Origin: a virus | Lineage: Duplodnaviria; Caudoviricetes | Length of the DNA stretch: 64,000 bases | IMG/VR virus record: IMGVR_UViG_3300025389_000011 | Strand: one strand, 5' to 3' | Shown: piece after piece, positions 2,319 through 51,717 of the stretch | Layout: the number at the start of each line of letters is the position of its first letter | Numbering within the stretch: the first letter of the stretch is position 1 | Made by a program: the position numbers and the translations under genes | Notes under the pieces: model-generated | What the model was told of the DNA's origin: nothing | Seen by the model: the letters and a program-made list of their open reading frames with translations, nothing else | Databases searched by the model: none

Positions 2319-3884
2319 TTAATGTTTGGTATACGCTTTAATACATTCTCTCCAGTACCATTTTAGTTCTGGAAATATTTCCATAAAATTTGTTTGCCTA
2401 CGTCTATCGTACTCACTAATAAACATGTAGAAGTTAGTTTTATTTAGTGACACTTGGTCCGCTGGCAAAGATTCTTGCATTATAGCAAGGTCTCGCTTGA
2501 TTTTCAATATCTCATAGGGTTTAAATCCTTCGAATGTTTCCGAATAGTCTTCACCTTGTACGTTGTCTTCCATATATTTCAAACAACGTTCTACTTCTTT
2601 GATACCATATTCTCCTGCATTTTGTATGCTGAACCATGGTGGATAACGTAGAATGGGTATGTCAAAGAATACACGTTGATATTTCTTTTGCTTATAAACT
2701 TTGTGTACAATATTATTTTCTTTTTCAGTTTCAGTTTGTTCGGGTGCGATTGTAAACTCAGTTTGGGCACGTCCACCAAATTCTTCACGTAGTGTTAAAA
2801 TCATTTCTAAAAATTTATGTAAGCTGGGAATGCTTAACATGTTGAATGTATTGATAAAACTAACTGTGCTGTATTTTGTTTCACGTAAAAAGGTACGAAC
2901 ATTGTTCAACAATCTGTCAAACTCTAATCCAGTACGCATATATTCTGCTTGTTCCCCAAATCCATCTAATGATACAAACAACCAAAAGTGCTTGAAGCCT
3001 TTGTCTACATACCAATGATTACCGCTGAACTCATTAAAGTTTTCCTTGTCTTCATATGTACGTAATTCTTCTAGTGCCTTTACTTTTTCTAAAAACTTAT
3101 CAAATAGTTTTTGATCTGGAGGACACATGTTACTTGTTATACTTAATTCAAGTTGACCATGTGGGTTTTCATTTACATAGTCTAATACTTTAAATGTGTT
3201 TTTGTCCATGAGTGGTTCACCGCCGGTCATTCTAAAAACACGTAACTTACGATAAATCTCAGGAAACCATTGCCAAAATGCTTCAACATATGGATTATCT
3301 TTAGCCGCAACCTTAAGTGGCATTAGTCCCTTTTTCTCCAAATGCTCTAAGTTGTTGTGTGTCATGTCAGATAATTTATACCCACCATGTTTTTTAACTT
3401 CTTCTTCCCAACTTGTGCTTAGGTGAGGACTGCAATACATGCACTTGAAATTACATGCTTGATTAAAATTAACCTCTACATAGCGAGGGGTAACATTATA
3501 GTCAAAACTATTTGTTGTTACTTCGTCAAATGTTGGTGCGTTCCACCACTCACTACTGCGATAATGTCTATCACTCATGTGACCTTTGGGGTCATCACTT
3601 TGTGCATCTTCTACTTTCCAACAGTAACTACAACCCTCAGGTCTTTCACCGTTGAGCATTTGTTTGCGTTCATGTATTTTGATAGGTGTATTGTGTAATA
3701 CACTAGGATTATCTTTTAATAACTCTAGTGGAATCTTATGCGTAGGAGGATGGTAACAGCTTTGTGTTAATCCACTTGGCAAGTGTATTGAAACTTGTTG
3801 CCATTTTGCGAGACATAGTGATGGACTGACCGCATTCAAGCGGTCACGCATGTCTCTAGCATATTGGTCGTACTCACCCGACAT
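2319..3884 (-). CDS. Radical SAM protein with N-terminal twitch domain
   Basis: CNFKCMYC, MTGGEPL, SLDGFGEQAEYMR, and an N-terminal LCLAKW...SCYHP...CSYCW cluster. Clear paralogue of 777-2309. Confidence 0.92.
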   Translation of the reverse strand: MSGEYDQYARDMRDRLNAVSPSLCLAKWQQVSIHLPSGLTQSCYHPPTHKIPLELLKDNPSVLHNTPIKIHERKQMLNGERPEGCSYCWKVEDAQSDDPKGHMSDRHYRSSEWWNAPTFDEVTTNSFDYNVTPRYVEVNFNQACNFKCMYCSPHLSTSWEEEVKKHGGYKLSDMTHNNLEHLEKKGLMPLKVAAKDNPYVEAFWQWFPEIYRKLRVFRMTGGEPLMDKNTFKVLDYVNENPHGQLELSITSNMCPPDQKLFDKFLEKVKALEELRTYEDKENFNEFSGNHWYVDKGFKHFWLFVSLDGFGEQAEYMRTGLEFDRLLNNVRTFLRETKYSTVSFINTFNMLSIPSLHKFLEMILTLREEFGGRAQTEFTIAPEQTETEKENNIVHKVYKQKKYQRVFFDIPILRYPPWFSIQNAGEYGIKEVERCLKYMEDNVQGEDYSETFEGFKPYEILKIKRDLAIMQESLPADQVSLNKTNFYMFISEYDRRRQTNFMEIFPELKWYWRECIKAYTKH

Positions 3885-25800: not shown

Positions 25801-28800
25801 TGAATCTAATGTTACGCTAGGAATTGTTGCAGGGTATAATCCTAACTTAGTTGGTGTGTTAGGTACATAGCTACCTGTTGTGTTATTATATTCATTAATT
25901 GTAATGGTATCGTTTTGTAACAAGTCATATGTTACCGTTAATGAAGGTGCGGTACTGCTGACAGTATAATCAACACCACGTATCAATTGAGTTTGAACAC
26001 CATTGCGTGTTAAGTATACCAATACGCTACTATAATTTGCTTTACTAAAATCATAAATTGTACTCAATGGATAGATACTAATATCTAATGAGTTTGCAAA
26101 AGTATATGTATTTGTAATATAAGGAGCATTACAAGGCAACATATCACTCCAAAAGAATGGTTGATCTGAAGAATGTGTTGCTGATATTTGCGTTATTGCA
26201 TCATCTAAAATTTGAGCAGGAGTTTGTATATAACTATAATTTGTATTATTAATTGTGTAAACTAACAAATCTTTAAATGTAATATATTCTCTACTATTAT
26301 ATTGTAATGAGTCAAATAAATTAGTATTTGGGTCACGTAAAAATGCACCAGGCAATACTAAACTTGCACTATTTTGAATAATAGCATTGCCCCATGGAAC
26401 TAAATTACCTAAATCACGGTAATTATTAGGTCCAAAGATTTGACCGCTAGTATTTGGATTATTGTAGAAAATACTTTGATATTGTCTACGAATATCACCA
26501 ACATTCGCTGTTGTAATATTGGTGTTGAAAGGATTGTTATTAATATTAATAGGTGTTTGGTAGTAAGCAGTTTCACTTACTTGGTCACTTAATATTAAAA
26601 CTTGTATTACACAATCAGTTACCGGAATATATGCTGAAGATATAATAATGCTTGTGGTATCAGAAGTTGTTGTTAATGTATAATTAGCAGGATCCAAATA
26701 TGTATTGTTTACATAAACTTGAACCTTAGGCCATTGAATATCAGATGTTGAACTTAATGGAGCAATGTCGCAATTAAATGCTGTGAGTCCACTTAGTGCA
26801 GGTACACTAAAATCAAAAATTTGATATTGAACGCTAGGACTTACTGCTGTTTGCCAACCTAATTGACGAATATATGTTGTACCGTCAATAGAGTAATTAT
26901 ATACATAACCAGTGTTAACATTTTCAGTTATAGGACTTAACCCACTTACATAGGTAAAAGTATCACTATTCAATGTTACATTGAAAGATATATCACCAAT
27001 GTTGTCTACACCAGAATATTGAATTGGGAAACCTAATACCGTGTCATTTGTTCCTGTACCAACACCATATTGAAATAGTGTGCTTCCCTTAAATGAGCTA
27101 CCTTGATAAACTGTTAAGTCACCAAAACTTATTCCATTGCTATCAAACACATCAAAATAAGGTGTTTGATTTACATTTATTTTTTGTTGGCATTCTATCC
27201 AAGCTGTACCATTGTAATAAAAATCTGTACCTTGATAATTATACCCACGATAAATTGTTGTTTGTTCATTTGGTAATACCAATCCGTCTTCTGCTTCTGT
27301 TAGTGTAATGATTGGTACACCATTGGTTACAGTTGTAGAAAATTGTGACACATAGATTTTGTTTCTTACATTTACATCGGTGTCATTTGCAAAAACAATT
27401 CTTGCACCATCGAACAATGCGTAATTGCTTAGTTGAGTATATGCTGTAACTAAACTAGCTACCGTTGTTCCTTGAACAGTTGATTGATTATACCAACTTA
27501 CTGTAATGATAGTATTGGTATCAACTTTTTCAATATTTGTAATTTGCGTAATTGCAGGTAATACCAATGTTGAATCTGTAATATATTGTCCAATTCCAAA
27601 TGTACCTGACAGATCGGCAGTTGGGATAGTAATCAATGTACTGTATGGATATATTGATGCACTTAATGTACCAGTAGCTGTAGTTAATGTTAAGTTTGTA
27701 CCTTGTTTTTGCGTTGAAATTGTAATATTAGTACCAATGATTGATGTAATATAATATGTAACACCTGTGCTTATTCCACCAAAAGTTGTACCACTAAAAG
27801 TGATTGTGTCATTTACAAACAATCCATTGGTATCACTCAATGTAATTTGATTTATTAATGCAGTTGTATGTGTCGCAGTTTTAGTTGAAGGACCTGTTAC
27901 TGCTTGAATCGTTGCATTATATGTTGTGTATCCTGCTACATCAGGATAGTAATTTGTTTGCCCAGCCACTTGAGTAAACGCATTTGTTGTTCTAAAATCT
28001 ATAAAGTCAATAGGTGATTTACCAATTGTACCTGAATCAAACAATTGTAAGTTTGGATAAAACTCAATGATAGGTCTTATTGCTTTGGCAGCCTGTGTTG
28101 CATATGTAGAAATAATAGTTGGATCATTGTTATATTTTGCAGTTGCAGTAATAACGTCTGTGTGGAACCAACGATTGCTACGTGACCAGGCATTTCTATT
28201 AATAGAATTTCTAGCAATTGTTATATAATCTTGCAGTAGTGGCAAGTATAATGTAATATCATAGTTACCAATATCATATGGTAATGTATCATATGGAATA
28301 TATTGTCCTTCTGAAAATAAGCCCGGGCTTATTAATTCAGTAGTAGGAATTAATTCAATAGCGGTACCAACACCCTGTACATAGTATTCTCCACTTGCAT
28401 AACTTGTTGGGAAAATATCACCCTGAAATGTTACCTTTAAACCATTTGTAAAAACAATTCCTGTAGTCGATGTATATTGAGTTTTACCTAATATTTCTGT
28501 ATCAACGTTTAGTGTATTATTATTGTTGTTTTCAACTAATTTAATAATGCCCACTTTACTTGGAGTAGTGCCATCTTGATAATATAATGTATCTAATATT
28601 GCACTATTATACGGTATTTCTTCTATAGTACCATTTGTATTTCTAAAGAATTTAAGGTTAATATATTCATTACCATATGTTGCAGTAATGTTTTCATTTG
28701 TTGGAATAAAACCAGATGGCGTTAATTGGATTTGTGGATTTGAAGGATCTCCGATTAAACTTATTGTGTAAAATGTAGCATTTACTTGTGTATAATAACC

Positions 28801-29826
28801 ACCTTCAAAATTATCATTGTCTAAAGGTGTACCAGGGAACACATAAGGATTTGGATTACCACCATCTTGGTCGTATGTAGTTTGTGCATAAAATTGATTT
28901 ACATAACCATATTCATCTTCAACGCCAGTATTATAAAACATTACTGTTAAACCATTTAATGCAGTAACACTATCAATGCCACCTAAGGCGTTTACAAATG
29001 CACCATTAACTTGACTAAAAGGAACATTACAAACAACATCTACTAAATTGTTTCCCGGGAATATATATTGGTCTAAGGCATTGGCTTCTGGTACTTGGAA
29101 TGTGATTACTCCATAATCAGCACCATTGTTTGATACTCCATATACATCACGTGTTTGTACATTTGGTTGAGTTGGACTATAACCAGTAATGCCTGGTTGA
29201 CCCTGTATCCAAAATTGACTATTTTGATTTACTGTAAATGTATATGTTCCTCCACGCAATAATGTTAGTGTTGGATTTACAGCCCCGGCAGGGTCTATAT
29301 TTGAAGTAATCAAATATGATTCAGATTGACTTTGTACTAAAAAGTTTACAGAATTATATATAACACTTGTAGAAATAGTAACAGCAGGCGGACCTGATGG
29401 CAACCAATAATATTGATTGTAATTAATAATTTTATCTAAATCAACAAAAGGATCCCATGAATAAAATTGACTGTTAAACAATCTACTGTTATTATCTGTA
29501 ATGCCACCTTGTAATTTTAATGCATCTAAAATACCAGGATAACTAATAAAATCTTGTGCTACAGTTGCACCGCTAGATGGATCAACCCCAGTGAAAACAA
29601 CACCTGGTTCTAATTGATAATCTGTTCTAGTTTTAGTTGGTTCAGTTACATAATAGTTATTTGGATTTACACCATATCCAAACTTACTACCAATATAACC
29701 TTGTATCTTTTGCGTGTTAGGCTGTGATGTGATTTGGTCTAATGTCGCACCTAAAAACTGTGTGTTTGTAGGTGTTTGGAATATTTCTGGAAGAAAATTA
29801 ATTGTTCTAACTCTTGTAGTTGCCAT
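10813..29826 (-). CDS. Giant (6337-aa) baseplate wedge/fibre protein, gp7-like position
   Basis: A single open 19-kb frame directly downstream of the gp6-like gene. It has FG-GAP-like repeats (FGSAVA, FGYSIA, FGTSIA), BNR/WD-like propeller repeats (VAVG...G.I) and about 14 copies of a P(I/V)xF...FGGI...YYV module. Confidence 0.8.
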   Translation of the reverse strand: MATTRVRTINFLPEIFQTPTNTQFLGATLDQITSQPNTQKIQGYIGSKFGYGVNPNNYYVTEPTKTRTDYQLEPGVVFTGVDPSSGATVAQDFISYPGILDALKLQGGITDNNSRLFNSQFYSWDPFVDLDKIINYNQYYWLPSGPPAVTISTSVIYNSVNFLVQSQSESYLITSNIDPAGAVNPTLTLLRGGTYTFTVNQNSQFWIQGQPGITGYSPTQPNVQTRDVYGVSNNGADYGVITFQVPEANALDQYIFPGNNLVDVVCNVPFSQVNGAFVNALGGIDSVTALNGLTVMFYNTGVEDEYGYVNQFYAQTTYDQDGGNPNPYVFPGTPLDNDNFEGGYYTQVNATFYTISLIGDPSNPQIQLTPSGFIPTNENITATYGNEYINLKFFRNTNGTIEEIPYNSAILDTLYYQDGTTPSKVGIIKLVENNNNNTLNVDTEILGKTQYTSTTGIVFTNGLKVTFQGDIFPTSYASGEYYVQGVGTAIELIPTTELISPGLFSEGQYIPYDTLPYDIGNYDITLYLPLLQDYITIARNSINRNAWSRSNRWFHTDVITATAKYNNDPTIISTYATQAAKAIRPIIEFYPNLQLFDSGTIGKSPIDFIDFRTTNAFTQVAGQTNYYPDVAGYTTYNATIQAVTGPSTKTATHTTALINQITLSDTNGLFVNDTITFSGTTFGGISTGVTYYITSIIGTNITISTQKQGTNLTLTTATGTLSASIYPYSTLITIPTADLSGTFGIGQYITDSTLVLPAITQITNIEKVDTNTIITVSWYNQSTVQGTTVASLVTAYTQLSNYALFDGARIVFANDTDVNVRNKIYVSQFSTTVTNGVPIITLTEAEDGLVLPNEQTTIYRGYNYQGTDFYYNGTAWIECQQKINVNQTPYFDVFDSNGISFGDLTVYQGSSFKGSTLFQYGVGTGTNDTVLGFPIQYSGVDNIGDISFNVTLNSDTFTYVSGLSPITENVNTGYVYNYSIDGTTYIRQLGWQTAVSPSVQYQIFDFSVPALSGLTAFNCDIAPLSSTSDIQWPKVQVYVNNTYLDPANYTLTTTSDTTSIIISSAYIPVTDCVIQVLILSDQVSETAYYQTPININNNPFNTNITTANVGDIRRQYQSIFYNNPNTSGQIFGPNNYRDLGNLVPWGNAIIQNSASLVLPGAFLRDPNTNLFDSLQYNSREYITFKDLLVYTINNTNYSYIQTPAQILDDAITQISATHSSDQPFFWSDMLPCNAPYITNTYTFANSLDISIYPLSTIYDFSKANYSSVLVYLTRNGVQTQLIRGVDYTVSSTAPSLTVTYDLLQNDTITINEYNNTTGSYVPNTPTKLGLYPATIPSVTLDSDYFQPTYFIVGHDGSYNKLYGNYDPDTGALDDFRDQALLEYETRVYNNLKLSNVIPITQYEVVPGFFRTLPYSYDEFLEIYSEGFLNWVGINRINYKTQFYLKSDQFSYNYSNSANKINQEPIQQGNFRGLYLYYYDTSTPNETPWEMVGYTTMPGWWTDRYGPAPYTSDNLVLWNDMAQGIDYNNGNPFINPLYVRDGLLSVLPVDSQGNLLSPFDSIMGNYNHFTFQNDWVVGDSGPAEFSYRRSSTWPFDLMRLYALFKPAEFFNLGVDVDNYKYNAEFNQFLINDRSHLDIQNIPVYGSGTPATSYINWIVDYEKQLGVDATTQITNLFSNLDVRLVYRLAGFSDQSLLNFYLEKSSANSNNSSLLIPNENYSVLLYENTPFTTLVYSGVVVQITQNGYKVYGNSQNDAYFRVYLPNTSSKYTVSTVENLSVKVYSQFYNDVVLVPYGTEFYSAQEVASFISGYSAYLIEQGMIYESVENGVPVTWNQMIAEFLYWAQMGWDLGVITTLNPAASQLTIDKDSYVVQPLSVQEQNFVLNQNLYPIKNIDLSIFRNGTLFNVAPQNQGDSISYGQFNISNIEHGIVFDNVTQFNDIIYNLITGLRQNRIYVRGVKTADWNGTLDANGFILNQDNILPWDPTVKYTAGSIVTYKNKYWFALDIVQPNPTFIEKSWKVTNYNEVQKGLLPNGQTRAYESTLYYDTYRNNLDEDANLLSYSLIGYRPRNYLATVDLTDITQINVYKNMIKEKGTINALNAFKGANLPQGGIDYTIYENWAILSGQFGGTLNNNYVEFILQQNQLTGNPSIVGLTNGVYTDGVQQEVPLYQLVNYSETITQPNILPTISTTTPSTVYPTAGYVNFDDVKMASYYYSGLATAKNSFGTVVPLSNFYVGDYAWIANYLSDWDVFTPASLGPIVNAKNNLNGTVTITFVQPHNLTKNQIFAIVNFNTQINNYYIVAGVVDANRVLINLSLNPQLTNVTGLGVGFMFDSQRVATAPEIAELPSLLNNEFNQLLVWTDANTNGGWAVYQKSLNYTYDAEILLPASETFGSAVAYAYNLGYMIADAGAGKVYRYQYNSVYQAYEITQTLTQNTSFGTTIAYTGNTFIISEPTGNVYVYELIQTALVNSLELQQTIPAPAGGSIWGKGLAISGDANWLYISDTANNNVYVYRKSAITYLYELMETLSVAGINSNAEFGYSIATDYYGDTVTIGAPYTNYDANTASYGYAFLFNRTVQMFEATNPSQLFVPQPFTLAWTPTTTTVTASSYSGNALVLNTVVGVYVNLPFIITGTPFGGLAVNTVYYVKSISGNNITVSLTRGGPAFTLAGATTGSMNLVIQNSPLYVTVNGTLIPDSMYAVLGSTFNIYSNSTPTLNYGDLINISSINFVLAQTFTDEMTPRVGVEFGTSIATNNFANEILIGAPFELSPENHEGAVHRFTNSGEKYGMIVGAYATNVTQNHTILLNGYAVNLKPGNATVISQLINNAKITNITSTAVDGILMIQLIDVSLGVSNNKLSLTVLDSTVLAELGIELYTETQVIQCPHTAGATQFGTVVKFNEFGTSIVVSAPAGTRYSATTFDATPQNNVDLDTIFDNNATQFIDTFNNAGAVYMFDYLGAYNESITAPGLFAYAQSTNALNIDYGSQPLYGTALDYNNNVVTIGTPKFSPTTYANDTNGQVVTYVNSSTSNDWAVYRTSCPVVDVNNIGPILIYSAKTNNTLINLDYFDPLQGKLLGAVRENIDIISNVDPATYNSVGTTVGGKVWGAENLGKLWFDTSNVRFLNYHQNDVVYNSQYWGAVFPGSDVAIYSWVASNVPPNQYSGPGTAYSIDSFVVTPIINEQGAIVPIYYFWARNTNIVNQEQGKTLADSTLQSYIAQPQASGISYFSPLLQNVFALYNCSDYINNTDSVLHIGYSSGGGNDVAHTQYTLIQDGNKDSFLPGLPSTSVYNLRGSVTSTQPTGLYARMLDSLSGTNVTGAVVPDPRLPPPVRTGVLTRPRQSFFYDRLGALDNYITGANALLIQYPFNEIANSVFLYEVGPINPSTGLPFYNVANYVNSVNWWAPGYNDNTRASVQVPIYADLSTLNVPVGTIASVLKNGNGFQETYVLDATLGWVRIGLQYGTVQISSAIYDYANNAIGFGNNYFDTAPYDTYPSEETRYIIRSLNEELPDNLLVERNVGLILLFNYIQAETVQNQNFLPWLNKTSLVDVTHTVRELLPLEVFQSDNEIFLEGYLNEVKPYHVLIKDFLFAYTGTDVFEGDITDFDLPAQWNSSVQQFITPELVYNNASGDNQYLPTDSIWQETSYNQWFNNYGLSIVGQDNYLISTLQSYMAVNTTSCYVDNVTGFPVNGTITIDNEQIGYSDLNIATNQLLGLSRGLNNSGASQHLPGSKIYINLPAVLVLNSGRGYSNPPQIRAYIDTSIYPAPRVPASFTAIMNLDRVIGVTVNNPGEGYAILPSISIDPALVVSVNSSQVNTTNNTIDLQSPLLQSGDLIIYEPETGSEPIEGLIPSERYYVNVLESYPNITFALYESYLNCVNDNNRVKLNSQGTGYQNFSVGAVASCVTSAIPVRENNITLKFDRTTYNSQVIDWQPGGYYGAFYAGSYSNSELVSSSSILLDNAQPNIANILASAQGAPFEILAVENQQTLVWSSLSRNTVQTYGSGSSYPNTIRITASTGGNPVTPTLGATLGFYVGMPIQFIGEAVGNLSNYTTYYVKSLVQLPNLTTGVLEATGFTVSTSIDGNGNPGSTFALTSATVPTAGLLAYPGEVTNQAILTINYDGIRNTTATTAGTNYVTVELTPTGQNGTTNFYVGLPIFFTGDVFGGIVANEIYYVTTVVDPQTFTMSTSADPLMVNVTATSSSNNAITCDSTLGLSVNTPIIFTGTAVGNLQTGITYYVSQLFSGTKNTQFSVSLSINGPVVTLTTATAPLDPVFGTSLLTFTSQANTLKLTNGTGSMTLNVNLSINPGQIQGQQFTAYNTSGVYTGVNGTLNTSSLLNINLTATLATVNRVCLSQTGPGITNIYTNMQFNVSGNIGGLTTGTEYTVVNTGVTSVQVLSTSSTGNWLTVNGTNSTDVLYVGMPIYFSGTSLGNVLLNVIYYVHSIDNSPPSGEGRFTIATSVGSSLPLSVSNDTGSMTGTGDPYVVLSNTLTNATTNTISLTQYINPSNYASFDVSYILGGYNVAFSSAGVGYAINNTIVIPGTSVGGTTPANDLTLTVSAINSTGGITGTIATGVTPGLDNKYYVDVVDVNQIALYSDPNLKVSVSGQNLPYKGITSTTATQTATTGNVITVVSNTEFNINDPVVFTGTVFGGITIGQTYYILTKPTSTTITISTSIGGSAFTITTNATGSMTMAKSGDYLLLPEPFYFNSSIVKYNNNVYQCIVSNNDADFIFGKWELLTSGSSKLNALDRIIGYYQPTVDMPGVDLTQLVTGITYPNSTYLGNAFAPADNYPLDTILQDQPFYPTGINLSAVLYNNHAYIATSDSGNNSSINASVDGVTWSSLQLANTPIGLYDIIYVDGEYVLTGNNSATPILISIDGTTFSTPSTVVPSTGLSSIAYANGLYVAVGKNIVTATDINDWKQRYEFTGTLENNLTGVTYANTAGFTGFIAVGSGQVSTNLVINNVAIIFSSRDGISWSPLTFTTQYGLNSVASNIDTIVAVGQGGSIYTTFNTYTWFVQTSGTTENLNKIIWDNINNRFVAVGDNGAIVYGTVDGTTWTTQTSGTTQNLRSVTYNSDTNEYLVVGDNNTVLQGNTSGWTIGSIFRNPPTVYDVQGDSFTSGYGPEELVPGVVSDTLTMTVATRPGTNWDATVYQNLGYGTKSIEIQATSGTQTEYSFASIATTPSELAVYVTSYTTGLSTRVYEENGFYTVDWVNQLIILTNSLSFTSPGNADSLRIDLYETGNGDQLVKSSTSNNPIRTNETTGFQEIYLNANYSASIYQGSGVIRPGSQPYIATATHTDSTTNQITLDTVANIALNNVITFEGTVFGGVAIETPYYVKTIDDISNRITISTSINLSTGTAGVTFDLTTASGSMKAISQNGDGVVWTPPAVYHNGNLLVLGESGIVTNTLSFDNLIIVNSTYNFVPNMPITFGPGIFGGITPYITYYVKQILGYDRITISETAGGPVFVVSTESGVATYISNDFALGIADNGINAKIILAQTYNTAVDYISYTVLGQTSPIQYGYTIPQTQVFFGNASKSTFNLVNYCGGDNPNNAIVEINGLRQTIGLYSINSSTNTILFYTPPLLNSTVAVTTYNLTDRQYLNTQYGITGSPGSVFVEVVVGATVNTLATYDENSPNTYTYDENNPQIVTYDEQFNYLHLSTGTTADLTVNSPIVFSSPTFGGIIAGQVYYILQILNSTDFTISTQVGGAVFPVTSDTGTMNGSLNGLTVANIVNIDNAITPASSTVLVSQTISGTNAIVYNATHPVVPGQFIIFKAQTPGTYGGISTTGEYYIVGTIIDDTSFTITDQYGTTIQLTDYSTGTIVGYAGGQPAIRVTTGIDHNLAENSLIRIDGTVGSVQLNNNVFYAKIVTSKIIDLYLQAYTPTLNAPNFPVTNCSTYIGDGYVWLDRVFTLSNTNTTATNSTGNRITVVSTQGLIPNTPVYFTTVNSTFGDNILGGIQADVEYYVYEVSPITTAGNFIIGNQYTIVTLGTTNFTAVGASSNTIGVTFIATGYGSGTGTATADQEFTISTKQYPNQSEFVLTTDTGKVFVSQFVQINVDRLWVTINGYRVPSSKLILNPYNDLSILTTIQTGDEVIITSMMPSATPNEEVYLLNVSASNQGNVFRTNGNNRTWLTQPLQYTDSIIHFNDVKKITNSIVQNATCPAAATDGDYYIGLSANKNDICYIYVYNNTTGVELNQTSYKTVIVDTAPILQINSQVSIGDSLTITVGIGRLVFINGEQIGFEYCDLNTNTVTGLSRGTNGTGEQNYIPVYTPVYGINTTNMMTDVLYHETWNPIPGYYDTVNGDPLQIAYTQGADFLRGGIN

Positions 29827-43022: not shown

Positions 43023-44039
43023 ATGACTAACCTATTTAAAAAAGCTGCCGTTTTTACGGATATTCACTTTGGACTAAAAAGCAATAGCATACAGCACAAT
43101 GAAGACTGTATGAATTTTGTTGATTGGTTTATACAAAAAGCCAAAGCAGAAAATTGTGAAACATGTTTCTTTTTGGGTGATTACAATCACCACAGAGCAA
43201 GTATCAACATTCACACACTACAGTTTGGTCTACAAGCATTGGAAAAACTAAGTGCCAATTTTGATACGGTGTATTTTATCCCCGGCAATCATGACCTTTA
43301 TTATCGTGACCGTCGTGATATTCATAGTGTCGAGTGGGCTAAACATTTGCCGAATGTAAAAATTGTCAATGACTTTTTTAGTGAGGGTGATGTAGTTATT
43401 GCTCCTTGGTTAGTACATGATGATTATAAAAAAATTCAAAAACTAAGTGGCAAATACTTATTTGGTCATTTTGAATTACCCCGATTTTACATGAACGCTA
43501 TGGTTGAAATGCCCGACCATGGTGAAATTAACACAGACCATATGCGTGGCTTTGATAAAGTATTCAGTGGTCACTTTCACAAGAGGCAAAGTCGTGCCAA
43601 TGTTTGGTATATTGGTAATGCTTTCCCGCATAACTATGCTGATGCAGGAGATGATGCACGGGGAATGATGATACTTGAGTGGGGTGAAGATCCAATCTTT
43701 CATAGTTGGCCACGTCAACCAGTGTATCGTGTACACAAATTGAGTGATATCTTAGAAAGCCCGGAACAGTATCTTTTGATTGATAGTCATGTTAGAGTAC
43801 ATCTTGATATTGATATCAGCTATGAGGAGGCTAATTTTTTGCGTGAAACATTTATACCAGAATACAAACTAAGAGAAATGTCGCTTATCCCAATTAAGGG
43901 TGAGGCTGTAGAACAAGGCATGAGTGCTGACGGTCTTAAGTTTGAAAGCGTTGACCAAATTATTATTGACCAAATCAATGCAATTGAAAGCAATAGTTTT
44001 GACAAAAAAATACTTTTGGACATCTATAATAATCTATGA
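43023..44039 (+). CDS. gp47: Recombination endonuclease subunit, gp47/Mre11/SbcD-like
   Basis: Metallophosphoesterase motifs TDIHFG, LGD, PGNHD, GHF and SGHFH. Confidence 0.92.
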   Translation: MTNLFKKAAVFTDIHFGLKSNSIQHNEDCMNFVDWFIQKAKAENCETCFFLGDYNHHRASINIHTLQFGLQALEKLSANFDTVYFIPGNHDLYYRDRRDIHSVEWAKHLPNVKIVNDFFSEGDVVIAPWLVHDDYKKIQKLSGKYLFGHFELPRFYMNAMVEMPDHGEINTDHMRGFDKVFSGHFHKRQSRANVWYIGNAFPHNYADAGDDARGMMILEWGEDPIFHSWPRQPVYRVHKLSDILESPEQYLLIDSHVRVHLDIDISYEEANFLRETFIPEYKLREMSLIPIKGEAVEQGMSADGLKFESVDQIIIDQINAIESNSFDKKILLDIYNNL

Positions 44040-44272
44040 TTATGGAACCAAGACGGTATGGGAAAGAGTATAGAGATTTAGAATCTCTTATAAAGATTAA
44101 TAAACATTTGGGTATTGCACTATCTGAATTGTCACGTACTCAACCCTATATAGGTAGTTTAAGAGAAACCAGCAGATTGATTAAAGTTAAGTTAAAATTA
44201 GAAGGTATATTAGAAAAAACATTGAAGGCTGAACAATTAGCCAAAGATAGTTTTTTTAGAAAATTAAAATGA
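44036..44272 (+). CDS. Hypothetical basic protein between gp47 and gp46
   Basis: 78 aa, with ATGA overlaps at both ends. Confidence 0.65.
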   Translation: MIMEPRRYGKEYRDLESLIKINKHLGIALSELSRTQPYIGSLRETSRLIKVKLKLEGILEKTLKAEQLAKDSFFRKLK

Positions 44273-46032
44273 TAACACTCCAGAACATAACATTACGAAA
44301 CTTTTTAAGTATTGGACAAGTTACACAAGCAGTTGACTTTGACAGAAAAGACTTAACACTTATTTTAGGTGAAAACTTAGACTTAGGTGGAGATGGTGCT
44401 AGAAATGGTACCGGTAAGACCACACTAATTCAAGGGTTATCCTACGCATTGTTTGGTGTTCCCATTAATGATATTCGTAAAGACAATTTAGTTAACCGTA
44501 CCAATACAAAAAACATGATGGTAACACTAGAGTTTAATGTAAATGGTACTGAGTATAAGATTGAACGTGGTCGTAAACCAAACATCTTAAAATTTTACGT
44601 CAACAATATACAAGATAAAACAAGTGAAGACCAACAAGGTGAAAACAAAGAAACACAGTTAGCCATTGAGCGTGTGATTAACATGACTCCTGAAATGTTT
44701 CGTCACATTGTGGTTCTTAACACATATAGTCAACCGTTTTTGGCGTTGAAACCAAACGAACAACGTGATATTATTGAACAATTATTGGGTATTACTTTAT
44801 TAAGTGAAAAAGCCGAAATCATTAAAAACATGATTAGGACTAGCAAAGACAATATTCAACAAGAAGAATTTAATATCAAGGCTATTGAAGAAGCCAACAA
44901 ACGTGTTAAAGAACAAATTGAAGCTACCAAACGTAGACAAAAACTTTGGCAAACTAAACACGATGATGATTTAGCTAAACTTGCGTTGGCTTATGATGAA
45001 CTAACCAAGATTGATATCAACGTTGAGTTACAAGCACATAAAGATTTAATTTCATATAATGAAAAGCGTAAGGCTATTGATGACTTGAAAAAACTTATTG
45101 CACGATGCCAAACTGATGAAGGCAAAGAATTAAAAGTAATTGATAAGTTAAACAAAGAAATCGTAGACTTACAGAATCATACATGTTATGCATGTGGACA
45201 AGAATTTCACGATGCGAAACATGAAAGTGTGTTAGCTGAAAAACAAAAAGCATTACAAGAAGCCTCAGCACAGGCATTAACAACCAATAATCAATATATT
45301 GAGTATACAACCAGTCTTAAAGACTTGGGTGAGTTGGGGCCTATGCCTAAAACGCATTATGATACTGAGGCAGATGCGGTCAAGCATTCAAGTCAGATAA
45401 GCAATATTTTAAATCAAATTGAAATTAAAGCAGTTGAAGTTGATCCATATAGTGAACAGATTAGTGAGATGGAAAGTCAAGCACTACAAGAAATTAGTTT
45501 TGACAAAATCAACACATACACCAAAACTATGGAACATCAAAAGTTCTTATTAGACTTACTAACAAGTAAAGACAGCTTTGTTCGTAAAAAGATTATTGAC
45601 CAAAACTTAAGTTACTTGAACGCACGACTAACACACTATTTGGACAAGATTGGTTTACCGCATAATGTAGTATTCAAAAATGATTTACAAGTTGAGATTA
45701 CAGAATTGGGTCGTGAGTTAGACTTTGATAACTTATCACGTGGTGAACGTAACAGATTGATTCTTGGTTTGAGTTTTGCGTTCCGTGATGTATGGGAGAA
45801 CCTATATAGCCCAATCAACACGTTGTTTATTGATGAGTTAATTGATAGTGGTCTTGACACAATGGGTGTTGAGAACAGTATTGCTATTTTAAAAGACATG
45901 AGCCGTCGTAGACATAAATCAATTTGGTTAGTCAGTCATAGAGAAGAATTAGCGGGAAGAGTACCTAGTGTGCTTAAAGTAGTGAAGGAAAATGGTTTTA
46001 CTACATACAATTCAGCAGTGGACATGGAATAA
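44269..46032 (+). CDS. gp46: Recombination ATPase subunit, gp46/Rad50/SbcC-like
   Basis: Walker A GARNGTGKT, coiled coils with a CYAC zinc hook, signature LSRGE, Walker B LFIDE, D-loop SGLD, and H-switch VSH. Confidence 0.95.
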   Translation: MITLQNITLRNFLSIGQVTQAVDFDRKDLTLILGENLDLGGDGARNGTGKTTLIQGLSYALFGVPINDIRKDNLVNRTNTKNMMVTLEFNVNGTEYKIERGRKPNILKFYVNNIQDKTSEDQQGENKETQLAIERVINMTPEMFRHIVVLNTYSQPFLALKPNEQRDIIEQLLGITLLSEKAEIIKNMIRTSKDNIQQEEFNIKAIEEANKRVKEQIEATKRRQKLWQTKHDDDLAKLALAYDELTKIDINVELQAHKDLISYNEKRKAIDDLKKLIARCQTDEGKELKVIDKLNKEIVDLQNHTCYACGQEFHDAKHESVLAEKQKALQEASAQALTTNNQYIEYTTSLKDLGELGPMPKTHYDTEADAVKHSSQISNILNQIEIKAVEVDPYSEQISEMESQALQEISFDKINTYTKTMEHQKFLLDLLTSKDSFVRKKIIDQNLSYLNARLTHYLDKIGLPHNVVFKNDLQVEITELGRELDFDNLSRGERNRLILGLSFAFRDVWENLYSPINTLFIDELIDSGLDTMGVENSIAILKDMSRRRHKSIWLVSHREELAGRVPSVLKVVKENGFTTYNSAVDME

Positions 46033-46066
46033 TTTTATTGCTGAAAAATAGAGATAAGTAAAACAT

Positions 46067-46621
46067 ATGACAAGTCCACAAAAAGCAAAAGGTTCAGGTT
46101 TTGAGCGTGAGGTAGCTAAATATCTCACAGACACTTACGGTGAGAGTTTTATCCGTGTACCTGGATCTGGTGCTTATGTTGGTGGTAAAAATCAAGTGCG
46201 TAAAGAAGTACTACATGAAGGACAAATACGTAGCTTTAAGGGCGATGTGGTTCCTGGCTTGTCATTCAGTAAAATGAACATTGAATGTAAATTTTACGCT
46301 GATTTTCCTTTTCATCTGTTATTATCAGGCGACTGTAAAGTAATAGATGGTTGGTTGAGTCAGTTAATGGACGTTGCCGACCCGGGTGATGTAAATATTC
46401 TTTTCATGAAATTCAACCGCAAAGGTAGATATGTTGCAGTACAAAGCAAATTAACATGGATATCAGATAATTTTATATATTACAGTTCAAAAGAACATGG
46501 AGATTGGACAATCTTTGAGTTCGACTTATTTTTTAAATCAAACACTCAGTTATTAAAAACATATTCTCAATCAGACACCAAGTCAAAACCAGTTGAAGAA
46601 TTACTAACAATAGAAATCTAA
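46067..46621 (+). CDS. PD-(D/E)XK nuclease, Holliday-junction resolvase (Hjc)-like
   Basis: KAKGSGFEREVAKYL...GDVV...IECK, downstream of gp46/47. Confidence 0.75.
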   Translation: MTSPQKAKGSGFEREVAKYLTDTYGESFIRVPGSGAYVGGKNQVRKEVLHEGQIRSFKGDVVPGLSFSKMNIECKFYADFPFHLLLSGDCKVIDGWLSQLMDVADPGDVNILFMKFNRKGRYVAVQSKLTWISDNFIYYSSKEHGDWTIFEFDLFFKSNTQLLKTYSQSDTKSKPVEELLTIEI

Positions 46622-47020
46622 AATTTGTTGTCTCCGTGGGAGACCTCCTTGAGGAAGCGTGAAATATCGCCAACGGATCTGGAGTAAGCATAGTTAGCGA
46701 TAACTATGGATATACCGAGAAGGCAATCGGCAAAGCGAACCTTCAACAAGTCTATGAATACTTTATCTTGATTTCATAGAATGTGCGTTGCTGAAGAAAC
46801 AATTAAAGTTGTTAGCTTCACTACAGTCCCATAAGTACTTTACAGAGCAACCGGTAGCAAGTAGTGTCAGAAATAGGCAATTACTTGGGGAAAAGATAAC
46901 ATTGGATGACGGGCGTGGCAAACTCCTTTACCATTGGTAGTGCTGAATAGCACTACCATGGCTTCAAAGCGGCAATAAGTCTTTTAGTAAAATAAAGTTT
47001 TAGAGAATAGATCACCGTAA
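46622..47020 (+). ncRNA. Candidate large structured non-coding RNA (class unassigned; strand inferred)
   Basis: No ORF of 60 aa or more. About 42% GC over 46621-46980 (152/360 counted). At least 7 hairpins, including CATAGTTA-GCGA-TAACTATG and TGGTAGTGCT-GAAT-AGCACTACCA. Confidence 0.6.
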
Positions 47021-47024
47021 AAAT

Positions 47025-47088
47025 TAAGAACGAACGAAGTGAGTTCTTAGACAAACGAAGTTTGTCTCTACAAGAGATGTCTCCGAAG
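47025..47088 (+). other. Cluster of C-GAA-G mini-hairpins
   Basis: TAAGAAC-GA-AC-GAA-GT-GA-GTTCTTA (47025-47049), AGACAAAC-GAA-GTTTGTCT (47049-47067), and a third CGAAG at 47084-47088. Confidence 0.7.
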
Positions 47089-47114
47089 TTGATAAATGAA
47101 TAACTGCGTCCAGA

Positions 47115-47333
47115 TTAAAAGAATGGTAACTGGGTTTTCTTGGTTGTATCTAAATTATTCTCTATCAGTTCATTAATGAGTTTTCTTTCTTCCATGGACA
47201 TATTCAATACGTCCTCGTATGAGACTCCGCCCCTCATGTACCAGCTAAAGCTAAATGCAGATTTTCGTATAGAGGTACATTCTTTTTCCATATCATCTAA
47301 CAGCTTTTGAACCTTCTCGGGTTCAAGGTACAA
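47115..47333 (-). CDS. gp51-like baseplate/tail assembly segment, probably expressed as the -1 frameshift extension of 47339-48169
   Basis: SWYMRGGVSYEDVLNMSMEERK is a gp51-like pattern. It has only a TTG start, and its frame is open back to the slippery site at 47345-47351. Confidence 0.7.
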   Translation of the reverse strand: MYLEPEKVQKLLDDMEKECTSIRKSAFSFSWYMRGGVSYEDVLNMSMEERKLINELIENNLDTTKKTQLPFF

Positions 47334-47351
47334 AAGCCTTATCCGAAAAAA
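47303..47351 (-). promoter_or_regulatory. Predicted -1 programmed ribosomal frameshift signal (T TTT TTC plus 3' hairpin)
   Basis: Minus strand GAT TTT TTC GGA TAA; 7-nt spacer; then GCTT..TTGAACC-CGAGAA-GGTTCAA-AAGC stem-loop. Confidence 0.7.
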
Positions 47352-48169
47352 TCAGATGCGTTAAATGTAAAGTTTTGATCGTATTCGTGTTGGCAGTTGG
47401 TGCATGTAATATGCATTGGCTTCATTTCAGATGCATTTTTTAGTTCTGTATTATAGTCACGGATAGCACTATACGTTTCACTATCACAGTTTTGCAAAAA
47501 GTCTAAAATAAAAGGTTTTTCTGTTACTTTACCTGAGGGTGTTGCTATATATTCAATTGTTTCCGCTAGTACTTCCATTGTTACTTTTGTAATAGTAGCA
47601 ATACCTTCAGTAGTTTTAACACCGCGTTCTGTTTCATCTTCAATAGTAGTTAATGAATTAAACAAACGTTGCATTTCAAATTGTTTTAATGCTGCCTGGT
47701 TCATTTCTTTATAAAGTAAAGGTCTTAGCTTTATGGATAAGTTGTTTATCTGTATCTCTTTGCTATAGTCTGGTGCTTTTAGTGTAGACAAAATACCAAC
47801 TAAGTTTACTCCATATTCAGATACTTCTTTACAGTTTGGGCATTCTGTTTGAATATCCAATTGATTACCTTGACTTGCTGACTTTATAGCAATCAATACT
47901 GCATCTAAGTCAGTACTTTGTAGGCGCCATGGATCTAAAATATCAGGGATACAGCTTTTAATAATGTCTGAAACAGCAGAACCGTTAAACAATGCGTCAG
48001 GTGTTCTACTAGTGATTTCATCAATTGCAGTCATTGGGTAAACAGGGAACTCACCAGTTTCTGTAGTGTTCAATACCCCTTCAGGATATCCAATACCTTG
48101 ACTTGGTAGTTTTAAAAAGATTGCAGGTCTACGAAAATACTGTCTTAGTGGATTATTTGCCAGTGCCAT
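47339..48169 (-). CDS. Baseplate hub assembly protein/tail assembly chaperone, gp26-like
   Basis: NPLRQYFRRPAIFLKLPS..., MTAIDEI, CPNC and CTNC zinc-ribbon pairs, ends DFFG. The true start is probably ATG 48169 (AGGA RBS) rather than 48205. Confidence 0.7.
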   Translation of the reverse strand: MALANNPLRQYFRRPAIFLKLPSQGIGYPEGVLNTTETGEFPVYPMTAIDEITSRTPDALFNGSAVSDIIKSCIPDILDPWRLQSTDLDAVLIAIKSASQGNQLDIQTECPNCKEVSEYGVNLVGILSTLKAPDYSKEIQINNLSIKLRPLLYKEMNQAALKQFEMQRLFNSLTTIEDETERGVKTTEGIATITKVTMEVLAETIEYIATPSGKVTEKPFILDFLQNCDSETYSAIRDYNTELKNASEMKPMHITCTNCQHEYDQNFTFNASDFFG

Positions 48170-48207
48170 AAATTTTGTCCTTTTGAAATTTGGGTGTTTG
48201 CCCAATG

Positions 48208-48231
48208 CTAAATACTATGTAGTCTATTTAT
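48208..48231. promoter_or_regulatory. Overlapping opposed late promoters (CTAAATA + at 48208-48214; ATAAATA - at 48225-48231)
   Basis: Both boxes lie in the short intergenic region between the divergent chaperone and tape-measure genes. Confidence 0.55.
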
Positions 48232-48273
48232 TGGTATAAAATAGCACCTAAAAAAACCGGACATCTAACATAT

Positions 48274-51200
48274 ATGAGCAGTAATGACGAAATCAACGCA
48301 CAACTAGCAGAACAGATGCGTAATTTAGCCGACACTATGGCGGCTAGTAGTACTAGTACTATTTTACAAACTGAAATTCTTAAAAAGCTAGCCGCCGCTC
48401 AAGGTGTTGATGTAAAGAATATTAAGGGGTTAGACCAAGATTTTAGTAACTTAAAAACTAATATCAGTCAACAGTCTGCCGCATATCAAGCAAATCAAAA
48501 AGCCGCTGAAGAATATGCTAAAGCCATGGGCAACTTTAATGCGGCCCTTACATCAGGTACTAGAAGTTTAACATCTTTAGCCGGCGCATTATTATCATCT
48601 GAAAGAAGTTTTGGAAAGTACAATCAAGCACTAGAGGGAGCCGGAGATGCCGCATGGCAATTAGGTAAAAACTTTGGTGTGTTGGGTATGGCACTTGGCG
48701 CCTTAGTCAAGGGTGTCACAGTAGCAGCCGAACAATGGACTAAACAAGCAGATGCTACATTAAAAGCCACCGATAATTTATCTAAATTAGGTGCTGCCGG
48801 TTCACTAACGGCAAATCAAGTATTGGATATGGGCCACAATGCTGGCTTAACATCAAAAAATCTTGAAGTAATGACCAAAGCCGCTGGGCGTGCAAATAGC
48901 GGTTTATCAATATTAGGTTCTACTGTAGGTGATGGCACAAAAGCATTTGGTGCCATGGTTGCTGTTACCGCAGAACAACGTCAGGCATTTCAAAGATTAG
49001 GTGTAAGTCAAGAAGAATTGATGGATCGTCAGGCAGACTATGTAAAATTACAAGAGTTGTCTGGTAAATCATATTCCGATAGTTTATCGGATCAAAAAAG
49101 ATTAAAAAGAGAATCATTAGAATACGCAGAACAATTAACTAGATTAAGTGTTTTAACAGGTAAAAGTGCAGACAAACTACAAGAAGAACAAAATGCCGTT
49201 CAGTTAGAATACGAAGAAGTATTGTTTGAACGCCAACAGCAAAATAAAATTAATAGATTAAAAGCTGAAGGTAGAGACAAAGAAGCAAAAGATTTAGAAG
49301 AACAAGAAAAGAAACGTATTGACTTTAACAAAGTCATTACAGCAGAGTACGGTAAGAAAAAAGGTCTAGAGGTAGCTAGGGTCGGTCGTACCGGTCAGTT
49401 TGATGAAAAAACATCAGGTCTTGCACAATTAGGTATCACTGTAGGTCAGATTCAACAAGGTCAAAAAGGCGGTGAAGCTGGTGGTGCAAAGTTTGCTGAA
49501 GAACTAAAACAAGCAGGCGATAAACAAATTGACAGACTTGGTACTGCTATTGGAAAAACAAATGATGCTGAAAAGTTAGGAGCGCAATTAGGTCTAGACC
49601 AAGAGTTTATACAACGTACTGGTAACAAACAAAATCGCAACGAAGAACAAGCACTAGCTGATGCAAGGAATAAAACAGGTGGTGCCGCAGAAGGAAAATC
49701 AACTGCAGGTGGTGCCGCAGCCACAGATCCTGCTCAAATAGCAAGAAACAACTTAACAGAAACAGAAATATCTGCACAAGTAGCAGTAGATAAACTAGTA
49801 CAATCAACCAATCCTTTATTGAATGGATTTAATGCAACAACAATAGCCGCAACTGCTTTGGCAGCTGCCGCGGCCGCGGCCGCATTGGCGCTGGGTGTAA
49901 TGGCCGGAGCATCATTGCTTAAAGGTGGCAAAGGTGGATTGGGTAAATTATTGGGTAAAGGTAAAGGAGCCGCAGGCGCTGTTGAGGGAGAGGCTGCCGC
50001 ATTAGGTAAAGGAGCCGCAGGCGCTGTTGAGGGAGAGGCTGCCGCATTAGGTAAAGGAGCCGCAGGAGCAGCCGAAGGAGCAGTTGCTAAAGAAGTTGGT
50101 ACTTTAGGCAAAATGGCAGGCGTTCTTGGAAAAGTAGGTAAACTAGCAGGGCCGTTAGGCACCGCATTATCAGTAGGACTTGCTGCCAAAGAAGGATATG
50201 ATAAAGTAAGTGATGTTAACAAACAGCGTGATGCTGGGTTAATATCTAAAAATGAAGCAACAATGCAAAAAAGCCAAGCAATTGGTAGTGCCGCCGGTAG
50301 TGCAGCCGGTGGTGCAGGTGGTGCATGGGCTGGAGCAGCCGCAGGCGCCGCAATTGGATCAGTTGTACCAGTAGTAGGTACTGTTATTGGTGGATTATTA
50401 GGAGCCGCAGTTGGTGGATGGTTGGGTAGTAAGGGTGGTGAAATAATTGGTGAGAAAGCAGGTAAAATAGCCGGCGACAAATTAAAAGATGATAGTCCTG
50501 GAGCAGATAGAGCAAGTGCTGGTTTATCAGACGAAGATATTAAAAAACAAGAAGAATCAGATAAAAAAGCACTACAATCTGAAAAACAAAACACATTAGA
50601 TACTGACAAAGAAACAAAAGGGTTAACAGAAAATACAATAGCGTTAATCAATTTAACTCAAGCATTAGACGATTTAAGCAATATTCAAACTATTCAGTAT
50701 CAGGGTGGCACTGAAGAAGAAAAACAAAAAAGAATGCAGGACATCTATGCTAGATTAGGTGCAGTTGGTGGTAGAGGAAGTGCCCCGTCTGGTGGAACAG
50801 CGCCGACTACACCAACAGCGCCGACTACACCTAGTGCTCCTATCACTATGGGTAGTGGCGGTGCCGGCACTACACCTAATGACATAGTAAAAGCATTAAG
50901 TGCAAATGGTATTACTGATACAAAATCGCAATCTAATATTCTTGCTCAAATAAAAGGTGAGTCAGGTGACTTTAAACCAAAATCAGAAAATCTAAATTAT
51001 AGCCCCGAACAACTATTAAAAGTATTCCCTAATAAAGTAAAATCAATAGACGATGCCAAACGTATAGTAGCTGGTGGTCCTGAAGCAATTGGTAATTTGG
51101 TTTATGGCGGTAGAATGGGAAATGCCGCTGATGAGGGATATAAATATCGCGGTCGTGGATTAATTCAATTAACAGGTAAAGATAATTACGCTAAGTTTGG

Positions 51201-51717
51201 TAAATTGATAGGTGTAGATTTAGTAAAAAATCCAGACTTAGCCAATGATCCTGAAGTTGCAAAAAAGTTAGTTGTAGCATATTTTAAGGAAGCACAGAAA
51301 AAAGGAACCAATTTAGCGGATATTAATTCTGTAGGTAAAGCAGTTGGATACGCAGGTGGAACTGCTGAGACTGCAAAAAGATCAGGTTTTGCCACACAAT
51401 TTGCCGCTAATCTTGGTTCAGGATCTAATAATGCCGGAACAATACTAGCAAGTGCAAACGCACAAACTATACCAAGTGCACCTAATGCAGGTCAAGCATT
51501 AGCAAAAGATAATACTGCAACATCATCTAGTAAAATTGTTGCTAGTAATGCACCAACCACATCGAATACAACGCCACCGGCTGCACAACCTGATCCAATA
51601 TTAGCATCAATTGATAATCTTAACACAACAATGAACACTAAGCTAGATATGTTAATTGAGGCTGTACACAGAGGAAATGATACCCAGTCTAAATTATTAA
51701 AGACTGCAAGGGCTTAA
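48274..51717 (+). CDS. Tape-measure-like protein with GH19 (chitinase/lysozyme-like) domain
   Basis: Long helical Ala/Gly-rich body with GGxxG hydrophobic segments. ILAQIKGESG...ENLNYS...VYGGRMGN...GYKYRGRGLIQLTGKDNY is GH19-type. Confidence 0.8.
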   Translation: MSSNDEINAQLAEQMRNLADTMAASSTSTILQTEILKKLAAAQGVDVKNIKGLDQDFSNLKTNISQQSAAYQANQKAAEEYAKAMGNFNAALTSGTRSLTSLAGALLSSERSFGKYNQALEGAGDAAWQLGKNFGVLGMALGALVKGVTVAAEQWTKQADATLKATDNLSKLGAAGSLTANQVLDMGHNAGLTSKNLEVMTKAAGRANSGLSILGSTVGDGTKAFGAMVAVTAEQRQAFQRLGVSQEELMDRQADYVKLQELSGKSYSDSLSDQKRLKRESLEYAEQLTRLSVLTGKSADKLQEEQNAVQLEYEEVLFERQQQNKINRLKAEGRDKEAKDLEEQEKKRIDFNKVITAEYGKKKGLEVARVGRTGQFDEKTSGLAQLGITVGQIQQGQKGGEAGGAKFAEELKQAGDKQIDRLGTAIGKTNDAEKLGAQLGLDQEFIQRTGNKQNRNEEQALADARNKTGGAAEGKSTAGGAAATDPAQIARNNLTETEISAQVAVDKLVQSTNPLLNGFNATTIAATALAAAAAAAALALGVMAGASLLKGGKGGLGKLLGKGKGAAGAVEGEAAALGKGAAGAVEGEAAALGKGAAGAAEGAVAKEVGTLGKMAGVLGKVGKLAGPLGTALSVGLAAKEGYDKVSDVNKQRDAGLISKNEATMQKSQAIGSAAGSAAGGAGGAWAGAAAGAAIGSVVPVVGTVIGGLLGAAVGGWLGSKGGEIIGEKAGKIAGDKLKDDSPGADRASAGLSDEDIKKQEESDKKALQSEKQNTLDTDKETKGLTENTIALINLTQALDDLSNIQTIQYQGGTEEEKQKRMQDIYARLGAVGGRGSAPSGGTAPTTPTAPTTPSAPITMGSGGAGTTPNDIVKALSANGITDTKSQSNILAQIKGESGDFKPKSENLNYSPEQLLKVFPNKVKSIDDAKRIVAGGPEAIGNLVYGGRMGNAADEGYKYRGRGLIQLTGKDNYAKFGKLIGVDLVKNPDLANDPEVAKKLVVAYFKEAQKKGTNLADINSVGKAVGYAGGTAETAKRSGFATQFAANLGSGSNNAGTILASANAQTIPSAPNAGQALAKDNTATSSSKIVASNAPTTSNTTPPAAQPDPILASIDNLNTTMNTKLDMLIEAVHRGNDTQSKLLKTARA
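49960..50066 (+). repeat. Perfect 45-nt tandem repeat (2.4 copies) in the tape-measure gene
   Basis: GGTAAAGGAGCCGCAGGCGCTGTTGAGGGAGAGGCTGCCGCATTA at 49960 and 50005, partial at 50050. Encodes GKGAAGAVEGEAAAL. Confidence 0.95.

Follow-up and report, generated by a model that had tools for sequence, protein, structure and literature searches.

Tail assembly chaperones such as gpG and gpGT of phage lambda are products of a −1 frameshift (Levin et al., 1993; Xu, Hendrix and Duda, 2004; both as cited in PMC12859696). For phage T4, a review (PMC3004832) counts gp26 and gp51 among the hub assembly chaperones and gives gp51 as absent from particles. According to two papers that cite Vladimirov, Gautam and Davidson (Virology 2022; 566:9-15), a short gene accompanied by a longer, fused one takes the place of frameshifting in some T4-like phages (PMC10885494), and poly-T slippery sequences are found within TAC-N genes of this phage group (PMC12846349). 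Here we describe a gp26-family gene in a 64,000-nucleotide stretch of Caudoviricetes DNA (IMG/VR record IMGVR_UViG_3300025389_000011; this whole stretch is called the window below). We argue that this single gene very probably gives rise to both a short gp26-like and a long gp51-like chaperone form by a −1 ribosomal slip.

Compared with lambda G/GT, the short protein is longer (276 aa as against ~100-140 aa) and carries zinc-ribbon-like CxxC pairs, and the heptamer is U_UUU_UUC instead of G_GGA_AAG. The initial annotation of the window, made from its letters alone, had proposed lambda-type G/GT chaperone logic. The expression logic was supported on the basis of sequence, and no match to the lambda-type families was found; the system would work like G/GT and does not appear to be a gpG homologue. 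The site of T7 gene 10A/10B (G_GUU_UUC), a frameshift also mentioned in PMC12846349, is likewise U-rich, is decoded by tRNA-Phe and yields a minor C-terminally extended form, but it affects the capsid protein and not a chaperone, and both its heptamer and its context differ from those of the window. The two states that the citing papers describe for T4-like phages, frameshifting on the one hand and a short gene with a fused long gene on the other, were also found here, independently. The link between gp26/gp51 and G/GT that the initial annotation put forward is supported by our results but appears not to be new: judging from the papers that cite Vladimirov et al. (2022), it was probably published in that work, and a GenBank record of 2020 for Acinetobacter phage Octan names gp51 a 'tape measure protein assembly chaperone'.

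The predicted slip site and its −1 extension

The elements at the core of the argument are these:

47339-48169, minus strand: gp26-family gene in the zero frame (translation; PF12322, phrog_150)
47345-47351, minus strand: slippery heptamer T_TTT_TTC, with TTT in the zero-frame P-site and TTC in the A-site
47115-47345, minus strand: −1 frame extension of 76 codons plus stop, with phmmer relatives, homologous to the C-terminal tail of T4 gp51
47302-47338, minus strand: predicted stimulatory stem-loop, with outer helix GGCUUUUG/CAAAAGCU and inner helix ACCUU/AAGGU

Zero-frame translation gives a short product of 276 aa that contains two CxxC pairs (CPNC and CTNC) and terminates in ...NASDFFG. Its ATG at 48169 is preceded by AAGGA about 9 nt upstream, and its 3' end reads GAT TTT TTC GGA TAA, with the stop at 47341-47339. 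The protein matched PF12322 (T4_baseplate) with an E-value of 1.2e-16 and 61.5 bits (cut-off 24.5) and the 'baseplate hub' family phrog_150 with an E-value of 1.1e-17. Database searches returned 5285 homologues of the short protein and, among the matches listed, nearly all were 274-277 aa long. A nucleotide search of a phage collection gave no match.

The T-run at 47351-47345 stands in X_XXY_YYZ phase as T_TTT_TTC, and the −1 frame is open across it. In that frame, a TGA at 47354-47352 is followed by 78 open codons (FFRIRLLYLEPEK...QLPFF) that run to a TAA at 47117-47115. Joining 275 zero-frame residues to the 76 residues of the extension gives a predicted trans-frame product of 351 aa, in which ...DFF is followed by RIRLL...WYMRGG.SYEDVLNMS.EER...TKKTQLPFF. 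The short form and the predicted long form have a common N-terminus and are read from overlapping frames, an arrangement that is kept in relatives. The initial annotation had read all of these elements correctly, namely the heptamer and its phase, the TGA just upstream with an open frame behind it, and products of 276 and ~351 aa. Only the window has this TGA just upstream; among its relatives, the opening of the −1 frame lies 10 to 124 nt ahead of the zero-frame stop.

We compared the locus with 23 loci from viral contigs (31-63% identity) and with eight cultured jumbo phages (Atu_ph07, Salmonella 7t3, Xoo-sp13, CBB, PA5oct, RaK2, SCTP-2 and 121Q), and the conservation set comprised 30 distinct genes at 23-63% protein identity. 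An in-phase NNT TTT TT(C/T) was present in 30/30 genes, as TTTTTTC in 29 of them and as TTTTTTT in Xoo-sp13, and the 3' codon of the heptamer was the rarer TTC in 29/30. The codon before the T-run varied among six (GAT, AGT, AAT, CAT, CGT and GCT) that encode six different amino acids and all end in T, and the −1 frame was open across the heptamer in every gene (30/30). From the codon usage of these genes, NNT-TTT-TTC is expected in about 8% (~0.08) of genes encoding x-F-F, a per-gene figure that is not to be raised to a power because the genes are related. Among genes with 23-35% protein identity, synonymous positions have reached saturation, and the invariance of the heptamer across the set points to selection at the nucleotide level. 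In genes whose zero-frame stop is found 16-43 nt downstream, and not at 10 nt (loci L015-17 and L021-22, and phages 7t3, CBB, RaK2, SCTP-2 and PA5oct), the heptamer was likewise unmoved.

The extension is kept as protein in the 30 genes, with the consensus FFR.RLL ... W.MRG..SY.D...MS..ER..I...I..N.E.TKK...PFF, and the spacing from the heptamer to W.MRG is 34 codons in 26 of the 30. No start codon was conserved in the −1 frame: the first ATG fell anywhere from codon 1 to codon 36, and in PA5oct it was absent. Heptamer and −1 phase, on which the initial annotation had staked its prediction, were retained throughout the set, with no conserved independent start. Sequencing error or a pseudogene as the origin of the arrangement is ruled out by its retention in 30 divergent genes. 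Complete cultured jumbo-phage genomes hold one PF12322-family place each (95 places in 95 records), and one place matching the window protein was found within the 64-kb window, as in every frameshift locus. Together, these comparisons provide strong support for the predicted −1 frameshift.

We propose that a fraction of the ribosomes decoding UUU-UUC with two tRNA-Phe would slip back by one base on U_UUU_UUC (47351-47345), and that the hairpin 6-7 nt downstream would pause ribosomes at the heptamer. Slipped ribosomes would bypass the TAA two codons on and read 76 more codons, resulting in a minor 351-aa form with a gp51-type tail besides the major 276-aa form. One gene would in this way give the short:long pair that is supplied in T4 by two paralogues, following the expression logic of lambda G/GT.

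Natural fusions and the T4 gp26/gp51 pair

Used as the query of an exhaustive phmmer search, the 78-aa −1 peptide matched 205 relatives, most of which were stand-alone gene calls of 40-98 aa. Among the representatives listed, 16 were single open reading frames (ORFs) of 319-351 aa with the extension at the C-terminus, and PF12322 lay ahead of the extension in 10/10 of the single-ORF fusions that were scanned. When aligned with the frameshift loci, the fusions matched in two frames, with the switch exactly at the heptamer. The fusion junction reads ..LD.S..FR..L.., with a single Phe, and two junctions read as DNA (AGT TTC AGA and AAC TTT CGT) were non-slippery and contained no T-run, indicating that the natural fusions are not homopolymer sequencing errors.

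Both contigs examined that have a fused gene carried a second, short PF12322 gene immediately upstream, which ended just after the FF motif (...NFFTDNK and ...DFFAK before the stop):

L043, 411-2389: tandem PF12322 genes, short and long, in an uncultured relative
L044, 4931-6914: tandem PF12322 genes, short and long, in an uncultured relative

The short tandem copies keep the T-run (AAT TTT TTC and GAT TTT TTT), and in the short copy of L043 the −1 frame stops within two codons of it. The presence of a fused long gene and a short paralogue in both contigs indicates that those phages have one short gene and one long gene.

The same division of forms is seen in T4, where two paralogous genes on opposite strands provide them without a frameshift, rather than one gene with a −1 slip as predicted here. 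The PF12322 profile is matched over its full length by T4 gp26 (208 aa; 215.6 bits) and by T4 gp51 (249 aa; 177.5 bits), each of which also matches phrog_150, and gp51 runs about 48 residues beyond the PF12322 domain. T4 gp26 ends in ...EFFELL, at the FF motif where the short form here ends (...DFFG), and T4 gp51 continues with ...DVFKLLVNPDE..., much like the long form here (...DFFRIRLLYLEPE...). Relative to T4, this clade has ~70 aa more in its N-domain and ~25 aa more in its tail. A BLASTP comparison of the window protein with T4 gp26 gave no match.

For profile comparison, a gp51 family profile was built from ten T4-like phages. Aligned by hhalign, the fused family and the gp51 family gave 77% (E 2e-5) and were collinear over 49-345 and 31-253, while the extension alone against the gp51 tail alone gave 87% (E 4e-6) over just 33 columns, a match of moderate strength; two cross-controls gave 0.3-0.5%. 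The extension profile was also run against the single T4 gp51 sequence, where it hit the N-terminal part of gp51 at 1.5% probability, a result dismissed as noise. Searched against Pfam and PHROGs, the extension gave a weak match to an unnamed PHROG family and noise, and nothing else. By these alignments, the downstream ORF appears gp51-like solely as the counterpart of the gp51 tail and is not a gp51 gene. The gp26-like/gp51-like pair of the initial annotation was accordingly borne out in a restricted sense: its first member by the PF12322 match, its second for the C-terminal tail and not for gp51 as a whole.

A maximum-likelihood tree with long branches separated the jumbo and uncultured clade from T4 gp26, which grouped with the gp51 family (100/99). 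The short tandem paralogues fell next to the frameshifting genes L018 and L019 (99/85). With its long branches, the tree is suggestive only of a two-gene state that may have arisen more than once, with a T4 duplication that would be lineage-specific. It is conceivable, though less likely than not, that the frameshift was the ancestral and is by far the commonest route to the gp26/gp51 pair in T4-type myoviruses and was replaced by short and long genes at least twice independently, in the T4 family and in an uncultured lineage. On this view, the slip would be general in a very large jumbo-phage clade (5285 homologues) with few cultured members, and the T-run in the short tandem copies would be a relic.

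Probable chaperone role, predicted stem-loop and competing explanations

The gp26-family gene lies head-to-head with a tape-measure-like gene, as the initial annotation had noted:

48170-48273, no strand: divergent intergenic region of 104 bp between the chaperone gene and the tape-measure gene
48274-51717, plus strand: tape-measure-like protein of 1147 aa, the presumed chaperone client (PHROG tape-measure families 794 and 167; Glyco_hydro_19; Gly-zipper)

Chaperone and tape-measure genes are laid out in the same way in RaK2, 121Q, PA5oct and CBB, and the RaK2 counterpart of the tape-measure-like protein is annotated as similar to tape-measure protein. The order also agrees with that of T4, in which gene 26 points away from 51-27-28-29, the last of these being the tape-measure gene. 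We suggest that the proteins act as chaperones that bind the tape measure and take part in hub/tail-tube assembly, and that the tail of the long form may make a second contact. This assignment draws on T4 genetics, on the position of the gene and its G/GT-like expression, and on the apparent absence of homologues from virion mass spectrometry (MS) lists. An AlphaFold2 model of a natural fusion was compact and of high confidence (pLDDT 94.9, pTM 0.90), with the extension forming four helices. In BFVD, its fold was matched only by other 'baseplate hub' predictions, from numerous myoviruses. When PDB sequences were searched by profile, nothing was returned below an E-value of 0.1; Foldseek against the PDB gave no match at E <= 0.001, and VIA-align gave only generic helical-hairpin matches (Z ~8).

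The competing explanation that survives best accepts the frameshift and gives its products another task, either as structural baseplate-hub subunits or as a zinc-ribbon assembly factor for another hub component. Such a role would suit the database name of the family ('baseplate hub subunit'), the RefSeq label 'structural protein' on the CBB homologue, the lack of homology to lambda-type chaperones and the genetic hints, given in the T4 review PMC3004832, that gp26 is in the T4 hub. That review itself, however, classes the two proteins with the hub assembly chaperones and gives gp51 as absent from particles, and the excerpted virion MS table of CBB contains CBB_247 and CBB_251 but not CBB_250. 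Likewise, the PA5oct homologue is without the electrospray ionization tandem MS (ESI-MS/MS) note carried by its tape-measure-like neighbor. A short/long pair beside a tape-measure gene is, moreover, a hallmark of tail assembly chaperones, and PMC10885494 and PMC12846349 credit Vladimirov, Gautam and Davidson (2022) with the chaperone assignment. We regard a structural or other hub role as unlikely, and tape-measure chaperones remain our preferred reading of the two forms.

The initial annotation had placed a stem-loop seven nt after the heptamer, and a hairpin was predicted at ~47338-47302, with its onset 6-7 nt 3' of the heptamer; over the 68 nt from the heptamer, the minimum free energy was −16.9 kcal/mol (z = −2.2 relative to shuffles). 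Covariation was examined in 15 sequences aligned from the heptamer, with a 12-bp helix supplied by hand (outer GGCUUCU/AGAAGCU, inner variable). In this hand-supplied helix, 77% of cells were paired, compared with 38-48% when the 3' partners were slid, and compensatory (doubly changed) cells numbered 16, compared with 8.3 +/- 2.4 in shuffles. The stem-loop is plausible, although not proven, and it fits the canonical spacing.

Slippage during transcription is a second, considerably less probable explanation, in which RNA polymerase would add one U in the U6 run and some of the mRNAs would carry the fusion as a single frame. The run is homopolymeric, T6 in most genes and T7 in Xoo-sp13, and RNA polymerase is known to slip on A/T runs in bacteria and in certain phage genes. 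Known transcriptional slippage sites, however, usually have runs of ~8-9 or longer. Exactly six T followed by C are found in 29/30 genes, which fits the X_XXY_YYZ constraint of tandem slippage instead, and a predicted structured element appears to be conserved at the canonical 6-7-nt spacing. We consider it very unlikely that the polymerase, rather than the ribosome, slips at this site.

Least probable of all is that two independent genes are involved, with the 72-aa downstream ORF initiating on its own (at TTG 47333 or at an ATG ~18 codons in) to give a separate small protein and the T-run incidental: a TTG is indeed present at 47333, small separate ORFs are annotated downstream of the hub gene in Atu_ph07, 7t3, Xoo-sp13, CBB, SCTP-2 and 121Q, and many phmmer relatives are stand-alone predicted proteins of 40-98 aa, but the TTG lies within the hairpin stem with no visible Shine-Dalgarno sequence, start codons are not conserved in the −1 frame, conserved residues (FFR.RLL) are seen from the slip site onward, ahead of most candidate starts, heptamer and −1 phase are invariant in 30/30 genes, and natural single-ORF fusions exist.

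Several points weigh against a −1 slip in a chaperone gene of the G/GT kind. The slip itself and the 351-aa product are predictions from the nucleotide sequence. RNAalifold gave no consensus structure on the 15-sequence alignment, the outer stem overlaps the conserved RLL and KKL codons and, as the hairpin lies within coding sequence, part of its conservation may be at the protein level. The classical G/GT gene is co-directional with the tape-measure gene, lying immediately upstream of it and after the tube gene, whereas the gene here is divergent. Neither a lambda-type chaperone family nor a solved fold resembling the protein was found: Pfam gave only PF12322, and the sequence and fold searches of the PDB returned no informative match. 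Finally, a second paralogue elsewhere in the phage genome is possible, since the count of one covers the 64-kb window.

Genomic setting and implications

The description of the source as a T4-like jumbo phage was a fair one. T4-type neighbors in the window include portal gp20, a prohead protease, the gp23 capsid protein, gp25 and a Rad50/Mre11-like pair, and related contigs reach 270-364 kb. Profile scans of the window proteins identified no tube gene beside the chaperone gene. The tape-measure-like protein has a GH19 domain (chitinase class I / endolysin-like) at residues ~870-1072 and a glycine zipper at ~682-721, and a cell-wall hydrolase is thus part of this tape measure (48274-51717).

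On its 3' side, the chaperone gene is flanked by a recombination/repair block (43023-46621) that contains an Mre11-like phosphoesterase, a Rad50-like ATPase (gp47/gp46 type) and a PDDEXK / RusA-like nuclease; a PDDEXK_15 gene or an endonuclease VII likewise lies near the chaperone gene in L043, 7t3, CBB and RaK2. The −1 extension ORF is followed immediately by an ORF-free gap of ~490 nt (46622-47114) that separates convergent genes. An Rfam scan of 46400-48400 found no match at E <= 1, and a terminator scan of the same interval found none. Farther away in the window, an uninterrupted ORF of 6337 aa occupies 10813-29826 on the minus strand among baseplate-region genes, and a 521-aa ORF at 2319-3884, among tail/baseplate genes, shows a weak radical-SAM match (24.7 bits, below the Pfam cut-off of 29.5).

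Existing annotations give the gene in several guises. The frameshift is annotated in 0/8 of the cultured jumbo-phage records, which list a 'baseplate hub' gene and, in 6/8, a separate small hypothetical ORF; among the metagenomic homologues listed, the short form of ~275 aa alone was called, with small ORFs matching the extension called separately. In Yersinia phages fHe-Yen9-03/-04 (LT960552, LR596615, NC_042116), the gp26-family gene is annotated as 'Lead, cadmium, zinc and mercury transporting ATPase', and the JGI names of some homologues are 'Nob1' or 'Com'. These labels are probably wrong and prompted by the CxxC zinc-ribbon motifs.

None of the eight cultured jumbo phages has the long form annotated, an omission that could be corrected, and these phages lend themselves directly to measurement of the slip and to a search for the partner of the tail. 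As the concept appears to have been published, the value of our results lies in extension and confirmation rather than in discovery; the evolutionary pattern would be new if the 2022 paper left out the jumbo clade or the second replacement. If our reading is true, genes 26 and 51 of T4 would encode the short and long forms of one chaperone, which would explain two long-puzzling genes, and frameshifting and gene duplication would be interchangeable solutions to one need.

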